From a virus (taxonomy: Duplodnaviria; Heunggongvirae; Uroviricota; Caudoviricetes): a stretch of DNA of 33,616 bases. Under the pieces are notes generated by a model. It saw only the letters and a program-made list of their open reading frames with translations. It was not told the DNA's origin and did not search any database. The stretch spans positions 1 through 33,616 of IMG/VR virus record IMGVR_UViG_2778261222_000001; one strand, written 5' to 3'. Numbering within the stretch: the stretch's first letter is position 1; every line of letters begins with the position of its first letter. A program made the translations under genes and the position numbers. Positions 1-26,193 of this stretch are shown in pieces.

Positions 1-726
1 TCACTTCGGGTATGGCTGAATCCTGAATAGCTTAGTGTTTAGTCGCTTTTTTGCGCGCTTATTCAGGAACCTGATGTAGCGATACTGATTAAATTTGTGC
101 GCCACAGCCCGCTCCTTATTAGCCCGCAAATACACGCCTCGTTGTCCTCCGCGTTTAATCGCGTTCATCGTTATCTCGTGATACCACTCGCCGTTCAGTT
201 CGTAGAACGTGCTTTCATGGCTGCCAATAAAATCAAAATTCGAAGCCTGATATACCACGCCAGCACGTCCGCAGCGTTCGTCTGCAAAGGACTGAACCCA
301 CTCCACTGACGGATACAGTAACCTGATGGTTTTCAGCGCGTAGCTGATGGCCCGTGATTCAGAGTTGCGGGGCATATCATCATGTAACCACATGCGGTTC
401 AGTTCCATATAGCCCCGGTTATCCGTTTCAAGCACGACCCGACGCCCTGAGTTGGGGTTAAGGGCATATCCCCACTGAAGAACGCCAACCAGATCACGTC
501 CGCTGAATACGCCCAGATGCAGGTAGGAGTTATTCACAAAACGGCGGGAATAGTGTTTTGTCTGAATGATTGTGCGGGCCAGCCAGCAGGATATGGTTTC
601 AACGCGCAGTTCCCTTGAACCATAGCCGACAATACGGCCTTCATACTCAATAACGCAGGGTTTTGTCAGAATGCGTGATTTCTTCTCTTTTCCCACAATA
701 CAGCTCCGTGGGATGCTCTTTGGCAT
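1..726 (-). CDS. mom: Mom-like DNA modification protein (adenine modification, anti-restriction)
   Basis: Terminal position after com as in Mu; ORF 1..738 opens with a TTG, first ATG at 724-726; stop codon is at window positions 1-3; 5' end overlaps the com 3' end as in Mu. Confidence 0.8.
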
Positions 727-832
727 TCGATATGACAATGTAACGTTTACAGCGAGGACATTTGATTTCTATATGCTTAAAGCCTCCTTTAAACAGTAAT
801 TTATTGCAGTTTTTACAGCGAACAGAGTCCAT
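647..832 (-). CDS. com: Com zinc-finger translational activator of mom
   Basis: Translation from the internal ATG at 830-832 gives [15 protein letters not shown]...CPRCKR..., which matches my recollection of Mu Com (Cys4 zinc finger, about 61 aa); AGGGGGAA Shine-Dalgarno 5 nt upstream; overlaps the mom start. Confidence 0.9.
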
Positions 833-859: not shown

Positions 860-954
860 TCGCCCAGAGGGCTGGGGGATATTTAATCATAATTGATGCA
901 AACAGACGATCGATATGATGATATCGATCGTCATAAACTATACAAAATGATTGT
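860..954 (-). promoter_or_regulatory. Putative com-mom promoter/operator region with a GATC-containing palindrome
   Basis: 95-bp intergenic region upstream of com; inverted repeat at 905-932 (gacgatcgata / tatcgatcgtc arms) carrying two GATC sites at 908-911 and 926-929. Confidence 0.4.
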
Positions 955-1521
955 TTAATCGCCTGATGTGAACGCTCTTACCTCGTCCAGGGTGGACAGC
1001 AGGGAAAGCTGCGCTTTCATCTCTCGCTGGCGCTGATAAATTTCATCATTGCGATCAACCTGCGCCTGAACCATTGCAGTAAGCAGCTCATCCAGTTGTT
1101 GCATTGACAACTTTACCTGCTGATTTTCCGCATCGCACCATACCATGGTTTTCCATGCCGTGACTGATTTTGCTGACATCACCACCGTGTAAAGACGGGC
1201 TATCGAATCCGGTCCCCCGTTCCAGCTATGACCGTTCCATTCAAAAATAAATGGCTGCGCCTCCTGCTCTGTACGCCATGCTTCAATTTCCCGGCGTTTG
1301 GCTGCTTTTGCTGCTTCCAGCATCTCTGACGTGACGGTGAACGGCGTTATTTCTCCCCATTTGCCGCTTTGCAGCTCCTGCCAGACTCGCTGCCCTGTCT
1401 CTGCTGTATCCGTGGCAGTTGCCGTATACGGAACCGGTTCATCCATGCCATCAAACAACACCCCACAGTCAATCGCGCCATTTTCAAGATAACGCGCATT
1501 TTCGATGCGTTTTATTTCCAT
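955..1521 (-). CDS. Tail fibre assembly chaperone (second cassette)
   Basis: ATG at 1519-1521 lies 7 nt downstream of the fibre stop (1529-1531); about 188 aa; position directly after a fibre gene. Confidence 0.65.
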   Translation of the reverse strand: MEIKRIENARYLENGAIDCGVLFDGMDEPVPYTATATDTAETGQRVWQELQSGKWGEITPFTVTSEMLEAAKAAKRREIEAWRTEQEAQPFIFEWNGHSWNGGPDSIARLYTVVMSAKSVTAWKTMVWCDAENQQVKLSMQQLDELLTAMVQAQVDRNDEIYQRQREMKAQLSLLSTLDEVRAFTSGD

Positions 1522-1528
1522 AAAACAC

Positions 1529-2887
1529 CTACGCAATACGTATGAACAAACCAATCATGACACTGGCTGACCCGGCAGACCCGAGTTCATCGCCTGACAG
1601 TGCACGATATGACCCCGGCATACCACCACCAGAACCCCGCACATATACGGAAACGCTGCCGTTATATCCAACCCTGCTACCGGTCGTGCCGTAGCACATA
1701 AATTCAACCGCACTCAGGCGTGACCCCGGATAACTGTAACCGCGTTTTATCCGGCGGTCGGTGTCTGCGTCTCCCTTACCGTTATAAGCCGCCAGTACAA
1801 GACTGCCTGCACCGTACCAGCCGTCCGTGGTACCGGGAGCAATACCGGACAGAAGAGAGATAATGTCCTGTGAGGTAATCTTCAGATTTTCCCAGCCAGT
1901 CAGATAACCATTACCTGTTGTCCAGTAGCGGTTGTAATAAATATCGCCATTAATACCGTAGAAAATAATGGCCTTTGCTGTATATCGCGGCTCCGGTGGA
2001 TTATTGCGTGCCTCAACCCACCGGATGCGGACCATCCCGTTAAACAACACACCTCCGGATATGATTTTACTGTCACCCTCAACAAAATATTCACCCGGCG
2101 TCGCATTCCTTACCCAGGACAGAAAATCATCCTCTGTGTTAAAACGGATACGCTCTGCGGGCAAAAAAATATGCCCAAAACCAAATGCGCCAGGTGTCGC
2201 CAGACGCCCTTCAGTCCGGTCACGAATGTCGCTCTGTGGCGTCATTGTGGCAGCGCTTTTCAGTCCAAGATTAGCACGGGATTCCTGCTGAGCCTCTTCA
2301 CCTTCATCAGCCAGCTCTGATAAACGATTCGCCGTTTTCAGTGTCGCAGATAACGCAGTATCAATATCTGCTCTGGCCTGCTCTGCACCGGATGCGGCCT
2401 TTTTCGCGGCGTCGGCGTTCTGCTGAACACCTTCCGCCAGTTTTTTTACCTCTTCTTTTGCACGGGCGGCAGCGTCTGCATGTTGCCCTGCCTGTCGTTC
2501 GCTTTCTGTTGCCGCTTCCGCGCTCTGCTGCGCCTGTTGCGCCAGTTCCCCGAATTTTTTCAGCGCTTCCGGGCGCAGGTCAATATCGGTTGCACCCAGA
2601 AAATCATTCAGCGAACCGTCCGTTGAATCTTCATAAACGCGAATGACGCCGATTTCTGAAAGGCGCTGTGCGCTCTGTGTCAGGCGAACACTGTATACAC
2701 CCGGCAGAACGGGGAAGTCATACTCCCCGCTCTGTGTGGTGACGTGGCTGAAAACGCCTTTCAGAATCCCTGCACGGTTGTGCAGGGAGGTCAGTGTAAT
2801 GGTTGCGCCGCCCAGCGGTTCTCCCGTGGGCGTTTTAATCACACCTTTAAGCTGCGGCATCGGGACGCTCCGGCCAGTTGATGGCAT
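1529..2887 (-). CDS. Side tail fibre protein, lambda Stf-like N-terminus
   Basis: N-terminal region ...GVIRVYEDSTDGSLNDFL matches my recollection of the lambda Stf / prophage tail-fibre N-terminal domain (...TITVYEDSQPGTLNDFL); followed by an Ala/Gln-rich coiled coil and a Gly/Tyr-rich distal domain. Start may be the internal ATG near 2860. Confidence 0.75.
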   Translation of the reverse strand: MPSTGRSVPMPQLKGVIKTPTGEPLGGATITLTSLHNRAGILKGVFSHVTTQSGEYDFPVLPGVYSVRLTQSAQRLSEIGVIRVYEDSTDGSLNDFLGATDIDLRPEALKKFGELAQQAQQSAEAATESERQAGQHADAAARAKEEVKKLAEGVQQNADAAKKAASGAEQARADIDTALSATLKTANRLSELADEGEEAQQESRANLGLKSAATMTPQSDIRDRTEGRLATPGAFGFGHIFLPAERIRFNTEDDFLSWVRNATPGEYFVEGDSKIISGGVLFNGMVRIRWVEARNNPPEPRYTAKAIIFYGINGDIYYNRYWTTGNGYLTGWENLKITSQDIISLLSGIAPGTTDGWYGAGSLVLAAYNGKGDADTDRRIKRGYSYPGSRLSAVEFMCYGTTGSRVGYNGSVSVYVRGSGGGMPGSYRALSGDELGSAGSASVMIGLFIRIA

Positions 2888-3377
2888 TAAAGGAGGCTTC
2901 GTCAGTAACGGTGCTTAAATCCAGCGCCTTTACCGCTTTGATATATGCCATCCACTGCGTAAGACGGACTTTGTCATCGTCGCTGATGGTGCCCAGCTCC
3001 AGCTCGGTTTTCCAGTCGGAGGTGATGTCCTTTGCTTCATTCAGCAGGCGCTGGCGTTGTTTTTCCGCCAGTTGCGAATAATCAACAGGAACAGGCAGCA
3101 CTTCGCCGTCCTGGTAATACCAGCAGGCTTCAATTCCAAAACCTTCCGGCAGCTCGTCCACTTCCACAATGGTGAAGCCAGCCGGATAAAGACGGGACAC
3201 GTCTTCCGCCATCGAATAAATCACGCCGGTTTCCGGGTGAATACACAATTTGTATTTCTTCGTGAATTTATCCAGTGATTCATAAAAATCCTGTCCGTCT
3301 TCACTGCGGAAATACTGAATATCCTTACCATAAGGCATATTTTCCGGGTAATAACGCGAAACGTTTCTTAGTTCCAT
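2847..3377 (-). CDS. Tail fibre assembly chaperone (Tfa-like)
   Basis: ATG at 3375-3377 preceded by AAGGAG 7 nt upstream; C-terminus ...NAINWPERP resembles the lambda Tfa C-terminus; follows the Mu-type fibre. Confidence 0.75.
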   Translation of the reverse strand: MELRNVSRYYPENMPYGKDIQYFRSEDGQDFYESLDKFTKKYKLCIHPETGVIYSMAEDVSRLYPAGFTIVEVDELPEGFGIEACWYYQDGEVLPVPVDYSQLAEKQRQRLLNEAKDITSDWKTELELGTISDDDKVRLTQWMAYIKAVKALDLSTVTDEASFNAINWPERPDAAA

Positions 3378-3391
3378 TGTTTTCTCCTTAA

Positions 3392-4387
3392 TTAACCTGA
3401 TACGGTGCGCCATGAACCATTGATATAAATCTGCGCGGATTTGTAATACACACCACCGATGTTATCCGCCGAACTTCTTCCCGTATCCTGGACATAAATT
3501 CCCGACAACTGACAGCCTGAAGGCGCGCGGAACGTCCAGGTGATTTCGTTACCACCCGGGTTGTAAAACACCTCATTGGTGTACTGAAAATTACGCACAG
3601 CGCCGGAATCGGTGGTGCTGATGGTGATATCGCTGGAGCCATCAAACGGTACATTGTTAATCCTGCGAGGGGTTTGTAGTTTTGTGGCAGTTGCTGCGTT
3701 GAAGCTGTCTTTTGATGTAAACACCTGCGCCCATTCAGACCAGGCTGCATCAGTGGTATCACGCCTTGAGCGAATATAAACCGGAGCATGCGCACCGCTC
3801 GTGCCACTCCAGCCAATCAGCAGTTCGCCTTCGCCAGATGCTGCCGCACCTTTCAGATGCAGAACATTGCCATAAGCAGTGGGATAGCCGTTGCTGTACG
3901 CTTCATACATCTGAAGTCCTGCATAGCCTTGTGCTGTACCGCTTAATGCTGTCACCGGCCCTTTTGATAAAAGGATGTCTGGTGACAGGCCGATTGCTTT
4001 AATAAATTCACTGGCGCTGTTTTTCCCGAGAATACTGCGCACAAAAGCACTGAGCGGCGTTAATGCCATTGTGTCTTCGCCGGTAAAATACGGGAACGTA
4101 TTATTCTGACCGGTTAATCCGGCAATAGCACCGGCTGAACCACTGTTCGTAATAAACAGTTTTTTCAGCGCTGTCATAATCTGGTTGGTGGTATTTTTAT
4201 CCGGTTTGATATTTGCCTGCCGGAGAATTTCCAGCAGTTCAGACTGAATAATATTAAACCAGTCCGGCCCCGGATAAGTGGGCGGAATACCGTTCCCGCC
4301 TTCGGTAAAATAAAGCGTTGTTTTGCTTAATTCAGCCGCGACAGGTGGCATCACCGGCACACCCGTCGGATTATCAACATGAAACAT
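3392..4387 (-). CDS. Tail fibre protein, Mu S-type N-terminal domain
   Basis: N-terminus MFHVDNPTGVPVMPPV... resembles the Mu/P2-type fibre baseplate-attachment domain as I recall it; GGAGAA Shine-Dalgarno upstream; 331 aa. Confidence 0.7.
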   Translation of the reverse strand: MFHVDNPTGVPVMPPVAAELSKTTLYFTEGGNGIPPTYPGPDWFNIIQSELLEILRQANIKPDKNTTNQIMTALKKLFITNSGSAGAIAGLTGQNNTFPYFTGEDTMALTPLSAFVRSILGKNSASEFIKAIGLSPDILLSKGPVTALSGTAQGYAGLQMYEAYSNGYPTAYGNVLHLKGAAASGEGELLIGWSGTSGAHAPVYIRSRRDTTDAAWSEWAQVFTSKDSFNAATATKLQTPRRINNVPFDGSSDITISTTDSGAVRNFQYTNEVFYNPGGNEITWTFRAPSGCQLSGIYVQDTGRSSADNIGGVYYKSAQIYINGSWRTVSG

Positions 4388-15550: not shown

Positions 15551-15600
15551 CTGCCTTTTAAAAGGCAGTTAAAAGGGCATTCACAGCACCTTTTAACTGC
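15551..15600 (-). terminator. Overlapping alternative hairpins between the capsid gene and the next gene
   Basis: Perfect palindrome ctgccttttaaaaggcag (15551-15568) and an 11-bp-stem hairpin gcagttaaaag...cttttaactgc (15565-15600) share the ctgc bases. Confidence 0.35.
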
Positions 15601-17530: not shown

Positions 17531-17556
17531 GAAAAAAAGCCGGATTTACCGGCTTC
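17531..17556 (-). terminator. Rho-independent terminator (minus strand), copy 1 of a repeated element
   Basis: On the minus strand: 7-bp stem aagccgg, loop taaat, stem ccggctt, followed by seven T; lies between the F-like gene and the protease gene. Confidence 0.6.
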
Positions 17557-25250: not shown

Positions 25251-25276
25251 TAAAAAAAGCCGGATTTACCGGCTTC
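25251..25276 (-). terminator. Rho-independent terminator (minus strand), copy 2 of the repeated element
   Basis: Same aaaaaaagccggatttaccggcttca sequence as at 17531-17556; hairpin plus seven T on the minus strand, between the moron and lys. Confidence 0.6.
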
Positions 25277-25297: not shown

Positions 25298-25795
25298 TCA
25301 GTTAACTTTACGGGCAGAACATGTAGTCTTCATTACTGAACGTTCAATTTTTATCTTCCAGCCATTTACTGTTTTTTCGACAGGATCATCTTCAGCTTGC
25401 TTTAAATTTTCAACTTGCATGAAATTCAGTGGGGCTGGGGTATCATCGTCCCATGATGTCGGGCGAACATAATCAGGGACAACAAAAGGCTCAAAAACAG
25501 TTTCACATAAAGCAGACGTCATTTGAGCGAACTCGTCGCTATCGGGGCGAACCGGTCCTGTAACATACTGCATTTTTATGTTGATTTCGTTATCTCGCAC
25601 AGACGCCTTTAAATCCTGATATACACCTAAGTTAAATCCTTTAAACTCAGCAATGGCAGCGTCACCTTTACCATACCAGTCGGTATAGTCAACGGATGTT
25701 TTTTTCTGAAAAACATCTTTGACTTTTTGCTGGAATGTATCCTCCGCTTGTACAGTAGTAACAGTTAGTAAAAGAATAAGGGGAAGATATTTCAT
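25298..25795 (-). CDS. Secreted protein of unknown function (moron)
   Basis: N-terminal signal peptide MKYLPLILLLTVTTVQA followed by ED; visibly AT-rich codon usage compared with flanking genes; ATGA overlap with the mor stop. Confidence 0.6.
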   Translation of the reverse strand: MKYLPLILLLTVTTVQAEDTFQQKVKDVFQKKTSVDYTDWYGKGDAAIAEFKGFNLGVYQDLKASVRDNEINIKMQYVTGPVRPDSDEFAQMTSALCETVFEPFVVPDYVRPTSWDDDTPAPLNFMQVENLKQAEDDPVEKTVNGWKIKIERSVMKTTCSARKVN

Positions 25796-26193
25796 TGTTC
25801 GTCCTTAAATAGTTGCATTTGATATTTTCCACGCTCCAGTCGGCGCATTCTTTTGATGGCCTGATATACCGTTTTGTATGTCACTTTGTAACGCTGCACC
25901 AGCTCCGCTACGTTTTTCCCATCAAAATCACGCCAGATGCGCATGTCTCTGATAAGATTTTCCAGTATTTTCCCTTTCGGAACATATACCTGAATCCCAC
26001 CGATATGATTGCAAATCGCCACTACCAGCTCAAGGGAGTGGGCAGGGTTAACTCCAAGCCTTATCAGCTCCTGTCGCAACAGAGCATTCAGCTCAGCCAG
26101 TAAAGATGGAAATCCCGATTTTTCCTGAACATCATCAAAATATTCAAGGATACTGTCGTCCTGATAATCACCAAATAAATCCTGCTCTTTCAT
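25792..26193 (-). CDS. mor: Mor/C-family transcriptional activator (Mor by position)
   Basis: 133 aa; C-terminal region YKTVYQAIKRMRR fits the Mor/C helix-turn-helix as I recall it; follows gemA as mor does in Mu. Confidence 0.7.
   Translation of the reverse strand: MKEQDLFGDYQDDSILEYFDDVQEKSGFPSLLAELNALLRQELIRLGVNPAHSLELVVAICNHIGGIQVYVPKGKILENLIRDMRIWRDFDGKNVAELVQRYKVTYKTVYQAIKRMRRLERGKYQMQLFKDEQ

Follow-up and report, generated by a model that had tools for sequence, protein, structure and literature searches.

The window, by which we mean the whole stretch of 33,616 nt that was analysed, is a Mu-like prophage genome in reverse orientation. It runs on the minus strand from ner, at 33.6 kb, to mom, and searches with the Mu proteins (tblastn) recovered the Mu gene order of ner, B, kil, gam, gemA, mor, terminase, portal, capsid, sheath, baseplate, fibre, com and mom. 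The com gene (647–832, minus strand) encodes a 61-residue zinc-ribbon translational activator (Pfam Zn_ribbon_Com, PF10122) that is 72.6% identical to Mu Com (tblastn, 832–650), and mom (1–696, minus strand) encodes a protein of 231 residues that is 96.5% identical to Mu Mom (tblastn match 696–4). As in Mu, the start of mom overlaps the end of com. Alignment with Mu Com places the com start at the ATG at 832, behind a Shine-Dalgarno sequence GGGGG at 837–841, and not at the TTG at 859 that an earlier, sequence-only reading had assumed; the non-coding interval before com is accordingly 833–954 (122 bp) instead of a 95-bp region at 860–954. The contig index has 4885 blocks with exactly this Com protein, which was found in E. 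coli prophages at random insertion places (e.g. fliH, next to rnr), as expected of a transposable phage.

The upstream neighbour of this interval is a DUF4376 tail-fibre assembly gene (955–1554, minus strand), which closes the late tail operon and occupies the place of Mu gin; no gin gene was found in the window. Between 955 and 4387 (minus strand) there is no invertible G segment. Instead, two fibre/chaperone sets stand in tandem on one strand, the first consisting of a 331-residue fibre protein (3392–4387) and a Caudo_TAP chaperone (2847–3413), the second of a phage_tail_N fibre (1529–2887) and the DUF4376 chaperone. Relatives of the phage carry differing genes directly upstream of the com cassette.

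A repeat search of the interval found a perfect palindrome at 905–932, GACGATCGATAT-GATG-ATATCGATCGTC, in which two arms of 12 bp (905–916 and 921–932, 100% complementary) flank a spacer of 4 nt. It lies 73–100 nt upstream of the com ATG and 23 nt past the stop of the DUF4376 gene at 955, which is read from the same strand as com. The 28-bp inverted repeat of the sequence-only reading is thus real, but its arms are 12 bp rather than 11 bp long and its pairing is perfect rather than near-perfect. The two GATC sites that had been noted in it, at 926–929 and 908–911, are indeed 18 bp apart from start to start. No second copy of the palindrome sequence occurs in the window, Rfam gave no match at E ≤ 1 on either strand of positions 500–1700, and a Fur-box or nod-box-like reading (ATC-N9-GAT) was set aside as a poor fit by eye.

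A repeat of this quality is rarely produced by base composition. In first-order Markov sequences of the same length as the window, 0.025 perfect inverted repeats (arms of at least 12 bp, loop of at most 12 nt) are expected per simulated window and 1.5% of simulations have any, while the real window has two with arms of at least 12 bp, at 905–932 and at 15565–15600. The second (GCAGTTAAAAGG...CCTTTTAACTGC, with a 12-nt loop) is found in the gap behind the major capsid gene, where it adjoins a further palindrome, CTGCCTTTTAAAAGGCAG, at 15551–15568. The GATC pair alone, on the other hand, is not significant, since 44 sites spread over 33.6 kb should by chance yield about one pair at 18 bp or less (Poisson estimate), and other close pairs elsewhere in the window are 24 and 39 bp apart. 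The window contains 2.7-fold fewer GATCs than expected (44, where dinucleotide-preserving shuffles give 117 ± 10 or 119 ± 11), and the tetranucleotide is likewise avoided in the Mu genome (72 observed, 132 expected). GATC depletion is known for prophages (PMC4659465, PMC6602927); these two E. coli methylome papers mention it, and do not mention sites at com-mom. What makes the pair meaningful is that it is conserved upstream of com in other lineages.

In Mu, the mom operator reportedly comprises three Dam sites and is bound by OxyR when they are unmethylated. OxyR is further said to tell methylation states apart and to bind hemimethylated DNA. The numbering of the Mu GATC sites and the limits of the footprint follow earlier work on Mu. 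Control of mom in Mu by Dam and OxyR is described in outline in PMC2909390, with a summary also in PMC4461284.

When the window was compared with the Mu mom promoter region, the palindrome aligned base for base with the Mu operator, at the same position. On the coding strand, direct comparison pairs GACGATCGAATCAATTAAATCGATCGGTAATACAGATCGATTATG in Mu with GACGATCGATATCATCATATCGATCGTCTGTTTGCATCAATTATG in the window and, over a longer stretch, ATAGAAAACGACGATCGAATCAATTAAATCGATCGGTAATACAGATCGATTATGCCCCAATA in Mu with ATAGTTTATGACGATCGATATCATCATATCGATCGTCTGTTTGCATCAATTATGATTAAATA in the window. The GATC distal to com (926–929), at the 3′ end of an upstream OxyR-like half-site, is orthologous to the promoter-distal GATC, the first, in the Mu operator, and the proximal one (908–911) is orthologous to the second; the 18-bp spacing between them is identical. 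At the position of the third Mu GATC, the alignments show CATC (895–898, minus strand), in which the Dam target is lost and ATC is kept. Thus, the window has the position and colinearity of a Mu-type operator, but only two of its three GATCs. CATC occupies the third site in the window and in all members of its lineage that were examined, and it is the same substitution that was made experimentally in work on OxyR and Dam at gtr and opvAB, where it removes the Dam site and leaves the OxyR consensus unchanged. Judged by this alignment, the palindrome is a homologue of the Mu mom operator and not just an analogue.

The ‘different architecture’ that had been proposed for the element stands in part. 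The GATC pair and its spacing are those of Mu, and in Mu, too, the pair sits in a dyad, albeit a shorter one (CGATCGA / TCGATCG). Three differences are nevertheless genuine: Mu’s third GATC is missing, the downstream OxyR half-site has degenerated to 5/10, and the dyad, 7 bp in Mu, has grown to 11–12 bp. The two operators also differ in their surroundings, since in Mu the first GATC and the ATAG preceding it lie inside the 3′ end of gin, with the gin TAA stop between the two GATCs, whereas in the window the same positions are non-coding. The host range of the Mu operator and of the window’s lineage is the same (E. coli).

How far this layout extends was judged from MAFFT alignments of coding strands. 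The set comprised 17 viral contigs with Com proteins 90–100% identical (L082–L098), the more distant lineages L101, L002, L100 and L099, and a Salmonella-type lineage at 60% Com identity (L003, L103–L134). All enterobacterial com lineages examined have a common skeleton, ATAG-N8-GATC-N14-GATC-N9-(G/C)ATC, and most of them keep the ATAG. A pattern search found GATC-N14-GATC just upstream of com in about 50 loci (Mu, L002, L003, L082–L098, L100, L101 and about 30 of the Salmonella type).

Within the window’s own lineage, the stretch from the ATAG to the proximal GATC is nearly invariant in 16 distinct sequences. No part of the intergenic region varies less than this operator block, neighbouring positions differing in up to 9 of the 16, and both GATCs are kept in all of the approximately 30 members of the lineage, although the genome elsewhere avoids GATC. 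Of each arm, 11 bp are invariant; the 12th pair differs in 9 of the 16 sequences, so that only 11-bp arms are a feature of the lineage. The block is also unchanged behind at least three unrelated upstream genes and therefore belongs to the com-mom cassette. The copy in the window is slightly atypical of its lineage: it carries the T needed for the 12th arm pair, and it differs from all close relatives by a 2-bp deletion at 846–850 (GGT--TTAC instead of GGTTATTAC) and by an extra T at about 879 (ATATCCCCC instead of ATACCCCC), between the operator and com.

Phages of other hosts provided a natural control. Some 75 distinct com-upstream regions from non-enterobacterial hosts (L005–L081 and L136–L161; Acinetobacter, Moraxella, Neisseria, Eikenella, Methylophaga, Clostridia and others) contain 0–2 GATC in 140 nt, and none has the enterobacterial layout; the one region with two, that of L025, has them 47 bp apart. 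Enterobacterial lineages have 2–3 GATC upstream of com, individual deletion variants excepted, over a local background of 0.3–4.6 per kb. The Dam-site operator appears confined to enterobacterial cassettes, a distribution of the GATC cluster that suits a device made for hosts with both Dam and OxyR; E. coli, in which the window’s lineage lives, has both.

Several relatives carry altered operators. In three genomes of the Salmonella type (L102, L132 and L135, at about 2400–2440), a 31-bp deletion has removed the first two GATCs, and the third site reads AATC; in L109, also of the Salmonella type, the second GATC has become GAAC. These variants resemble Dam-independent deletion mutants reported for Mu. 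Since the operator has been lost in some Salmonella-type relatives, it is dispensable in some settings. In Escherichia phage Chuche (L176, PP925824.1, 8560–9740) and in Salmonella L003, a three-GATC operator, ATAG-N8-GATC-N14-GATC-N9-GATC, stands upstream of com with a strong terminator before it. In Chuche, a P2-like phage, an annotated DNA methyltransferase takes the place of mom behind com, and the cassette is flanked by an ogr-like regulator and the integrase. The presence of the operator upstream of com in these genomes indicates that it travels with com cassettes between phage types that lack C protein.

We then scored potential OxyR half-sites, of which a Mu-type operator should have two about three helical turns apart, against the 15-bp dimer consensus ATAGnTnnnAnCTAT, which has 10 scored positions, as in PMC2909390 and PMC4856963; such consensus counting is a crude predictor of binding. 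The upstream half-site, ATAGTTTATGACGAT (927–941, minus strand), matches at 8/10 positions, a score reached by only 0.009% of 15-mers in the window; the corresponding site scores 7/10 in Mu and 9/10 in L098. The downstream position, ATCGTCTGTTTGCAT (896–910, minus strand), 31 bp from the upstream one, is degenerate. It scores 5/10, compared with 7/10 in Mu and 8/10 in agn43, and 5/10 is common (5.5% of all window positions) and near background. The Mu half-sites, at 7/10 and 7/10, are 31 bp apart in a layout like that of agn43, and L101, L002, L099 and the Salmonella-type lineage have this layout too. The full 37-bp OxyR consensus was abandoned as a discriminator, several registers being tied at 12/20 in the window, where Mu scores 13/20 and the controls (operator-deleted and unrelated sequences) reach 10/20, and half-site scoring was more informative. 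With so poor a downstream half-site and no third GATC, binding of an OxyR tetramer here may be weak or may fail altogether, and these two losses give genuine grounds for doubt about a reading based on OxyR and methylation.

The comparison with characterised OxyR-Dam systems runs along the same line. In agn43 (flu) of E. coli K-12, half-site 1 (ATAGAATAAAACGAT, 8/10) ends in GATC 1 and half-site 2 (ATCGTTTATATCGAT, 8/10) spans GATC 2 to GATC 3, with centres 32 bp apart. The window shares with agn43 an ATAG-N7-CGAT half-site ending in GATC, two GATCs at a distance of 18–19 bp, and potentially the principle of competition between Dam and OxyR, but agn43 has three GATCs and two good half-sites, whereas the window has two GATCs and one good half-site. 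Moreover, agn43 is a chromosomal adhesin gene with heritable ON and OFF states, whose sites lie downstream of the transcription start according to the literature, while no phase variation is known for mom (PMC2909390). The gtr operon of P22 and opvAB of Salmonella resemble the window in that their GATCs are embedded in OxyR half-sites and in that the CATC change introduced there is the one seen naturally here. They differ in having four GATCs, arranged as two pairs, in the alternative occupancy of their three to four half-sites, in being also activated by OxyR, and in sharing no sequence homology with the window. At both agn43 and gtr, OxyR is blocked by methylated GATCs.

The requirement for C that the sequence-only reading had carried over from Mu found no counterpart in the window. 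There is no C gene, and C-dependent activation of com-mom was rejected on that account. The single regulator of this family, a Mor/C-type activator at 25792–26193 (minus strand; Pfam Mor, E = 6.6e-30), is 63% identical to Mu Mor and 32% to Mu C, and no second Mor/C-family gene was found in the window at E ≤ 10. It is a candidate for the activator that drives late transcription. The dyad AAGCCGGTAAATCCGGCTT occurs in two identical copies on the minus strand, both with a T-run behind them, one at 17537–17555, upstream of the head genes (head protease), and one at 25257–25275, upstream of the lysis genes; these copies match a dyad inside the annotated Mor-activated middle promoter of the Mu record. 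No such dyad was found near com, even by degenerate searches. The phage thus seems to run a two-tier cascade, early and then Mor-type late, compared with the three tiers of Mu. Among the lysis-region genes there is in addition a 75-residue DksA/TraR-type C4 zinc-finger protein (PF01258; 23157–23384, minus strand), for which Mu has no equivalent there, and which could bind RNA polymerase and so matter for late transcription.

A C-box-like sequence, TTATGATTAAATAT (879–892, minus strand), does align with the C-protein site of Mu, TTATGCCCCAATAA, reported as TTAT-N6-ATAA. The window, however, has TTAT-N6-ATAT and its relatives TTGT-N6-ATAC and similar forms, so neither the C gene nor the exact site beside the operator, the two marks of a C-dependent Pmom, is present. 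The left half of this sequence varies within the lineage (TTGT, TGTG and others, in 5–9 of the 16 sequences), and the 15-mer containing it has no second copy in the window. Another candidate C box, TTAACTGAGCCAATAACC, matched a loose pattern upstream of the lysis genes and was discarded, as that promoter carries the Mor-type dyad. Scanning of 600–1700 returned no sigma-70-like promoter on either strand; given this and the absence of C, it is not certain that the operator has a promoter downstream of it. A GC-rich dyad, CCCAG-CCCT-CTGGG, is located at 863–876 (minus strand), between the C-box-like sequence and the ribosome-binding site of com. In L098 it reads CCCTG...CAGGG, with both sides changed and the dyad kept, and most relatives have one mismatch. 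Finally, no phage-encoded Dam or other methyltransferase was found among the scanned window proteins or the Mu homologues, and self-methylation of the GATCs by a phage Dam was dismissed.

Together, the position of the palindrome and its base-for-base alignment with the Mu operator make methylation-sensitive control the best inference for its function. The sequence-only reading had seen an ‘analogous epigenetic switch’; by position and alignment the element is the counterpart of the Mu operator, as that reading supposed, although it is homologous rather than merely analogous, differs in architecture only in part, and is not accompanied by the activator. On balance, we consider the element to be probably a host-Dam-sensitive operator, presumably read by OxyR, that helps to silence the toxic com-mom operon. 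OxyR binding, sensitivity to methylation and the direction of the effect are all extrapolated from homology. On the model of Mu and agn43, OxyR, a LysR-type protein of the host, would settle across ATAG...GATC...GATC while the GATCs are unmethylated or hemimethylated after replication, and would hold the toxic mom operon silent; once host Dam had fully methylated the GATCs, OxyR could no longer bind, and transcription late in lytic growth would be permitted. In these terms the operator of the lineage is, as far as its sequence tells, a reduced version, with the upstream half-site and two GATCs retained and the remaining GATC and half-site eroded.

The lengthened dyad might have other uses. It may act mainly as RNA, as a hairpin at the 3′ end of the long late tail operon (a partial terminator, an insulator or a stabiliser of that end) which restricts read-through into the toxic com and mom genes, with the GATCs as passengers, or it may have such a second role beside that of an operator. 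In com-sense RNA, the palindrome is predicted to fold at −15.7 kcal/mol (−15.0 and −16.0 in relatives), whereas the Mu dyad reaches about half this stability (−8.5) and the Salmonella-type dyad about a third (−4.9). Its 12-bp stem, 4-nt loop and placement directly after the last gene of an operon, 23 nt past the stop and on the same strand, are those of a rho-independent terminator. The dyad has not been lengthened in the Salmonella-type lineage, where a separate, strong terminator precedes the operator (stem −15.7 kcal/mol, as stable as the hairpin in the window). In addition, no strong canonical terminator was found on the minus strand from the head-operon promoter region (17.5 kb) to com, where there are only a few weak consensus matches, and L098 keeps 11 pairs by means of a shifted register with a C-G pair. 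The hairpin nonetheless lacks an adequate U-tract. Its tail, UGUUUGCA, has 4 U in 8 (GGUUUGCA in most relatives), with a T-tail score of 2.32, and 0.95 in relatives, against 3.07 and 3.58 for two terminator-like comparison hairpins. Only 5/12 pairs of its moderately G+C-rich stem are G-C, the d’Aubenton-Carafa discriminant is negative (by hand calculation), and the hairpin travels with com-mom and not with the upstream gene. The consensus scan for terminators did not call it, and as an intrinsic terminator it is a minor rival only. We regard a mainly RNA-level role as unlikely; an insulating role in addition to that of an operator is conceivable.

The same lengthening could also reflect a change of protein, the extended dyad having become the site of another symmetric DNA-binding dimer, of host or phage, that has replaced OxyR and may or may not be sensitive to methylation. 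While the downstream half-site decayed, the dyad gained five matched pairs beyond the two self-complementary CGATCG cores; its centre is of even length, unlike the 15-bp OxyR half-site, and the circuit around it, without C and without gin, is unlike that of Mu. However, we identified no candidate protein, the palindrome sequence is found nowhere else in the window, and the Mor-type dyad AAGCCGGTAAATCCGGCTT is unrelated to it. The upstream ATAG half-site, moreover, lies outside the dyad, is conserved alongside it and fits OxyR. A replacement of this kind strikes us as improbable.

We give a similarly poor chance to the proposal that the element is a decaying relic of a three-GATC operator that no longer regulates anything, the expression of com and mom then resting simply on read-through or on a promoter that escaped recognition. 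Of the original three GATCs and two half-sites, one each has already been lost, the activator C is absent, and a sister lineage tolerates deletions of the operator. Yet a relic should not be the most invariant intergenic part of its lineage, nor should it keep both GATCs in every one of about 30 members when the genome otherwise avoids them, and its dyad has been improved rather than degraded.

Lastly, the operator could have been rebuilt as a two-GATC perfect dyad that works unlike that of Mu, either as a dual DNA and RNA element or as an ON/OFF switch operated by Dam and OxyR (or another protein). We hold this to be improbable in this lineage without C and gin. A dual element would combine a methylation-sensitive protein site on the DNA with a hairpin that attenuates read-through transcripts from the tail operon. 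In the switch version, competition in the lysogen, where no phage activator would be needed, would lead to heritable states of com-mom, that is, to phase variation of a DNA-hypermodification enzyme in the style of agn43.

Mom carries out a rare hypermodification of adenine that defeats many restriction enzymes and is toxic if mistimed, and the operator of Mu that senses host methylation is a textbook case of bacterial epigenetic control. A specialist would expect Dam sites in front of a Mu-like com-mom in relatives from E. coli, and no new principle emerges from finding them; the two-site, C-less version with its long dyad, together with the natural deletion variants, is useful rather than surprising. 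The comparison shows that the operator is conserved and that it moves as a part of the com cassette among several lineages of enterobacterial phages. Nature has also dissected it, in a widespread lineage with two GATCs and one good OxyR half-site, in relatives from which the operator has been deleted, and in a P2-like phage in which it precedes a com-methyltransferase cassette. These variants are material with which to test which parts of the Mu and agn43 designs matter.
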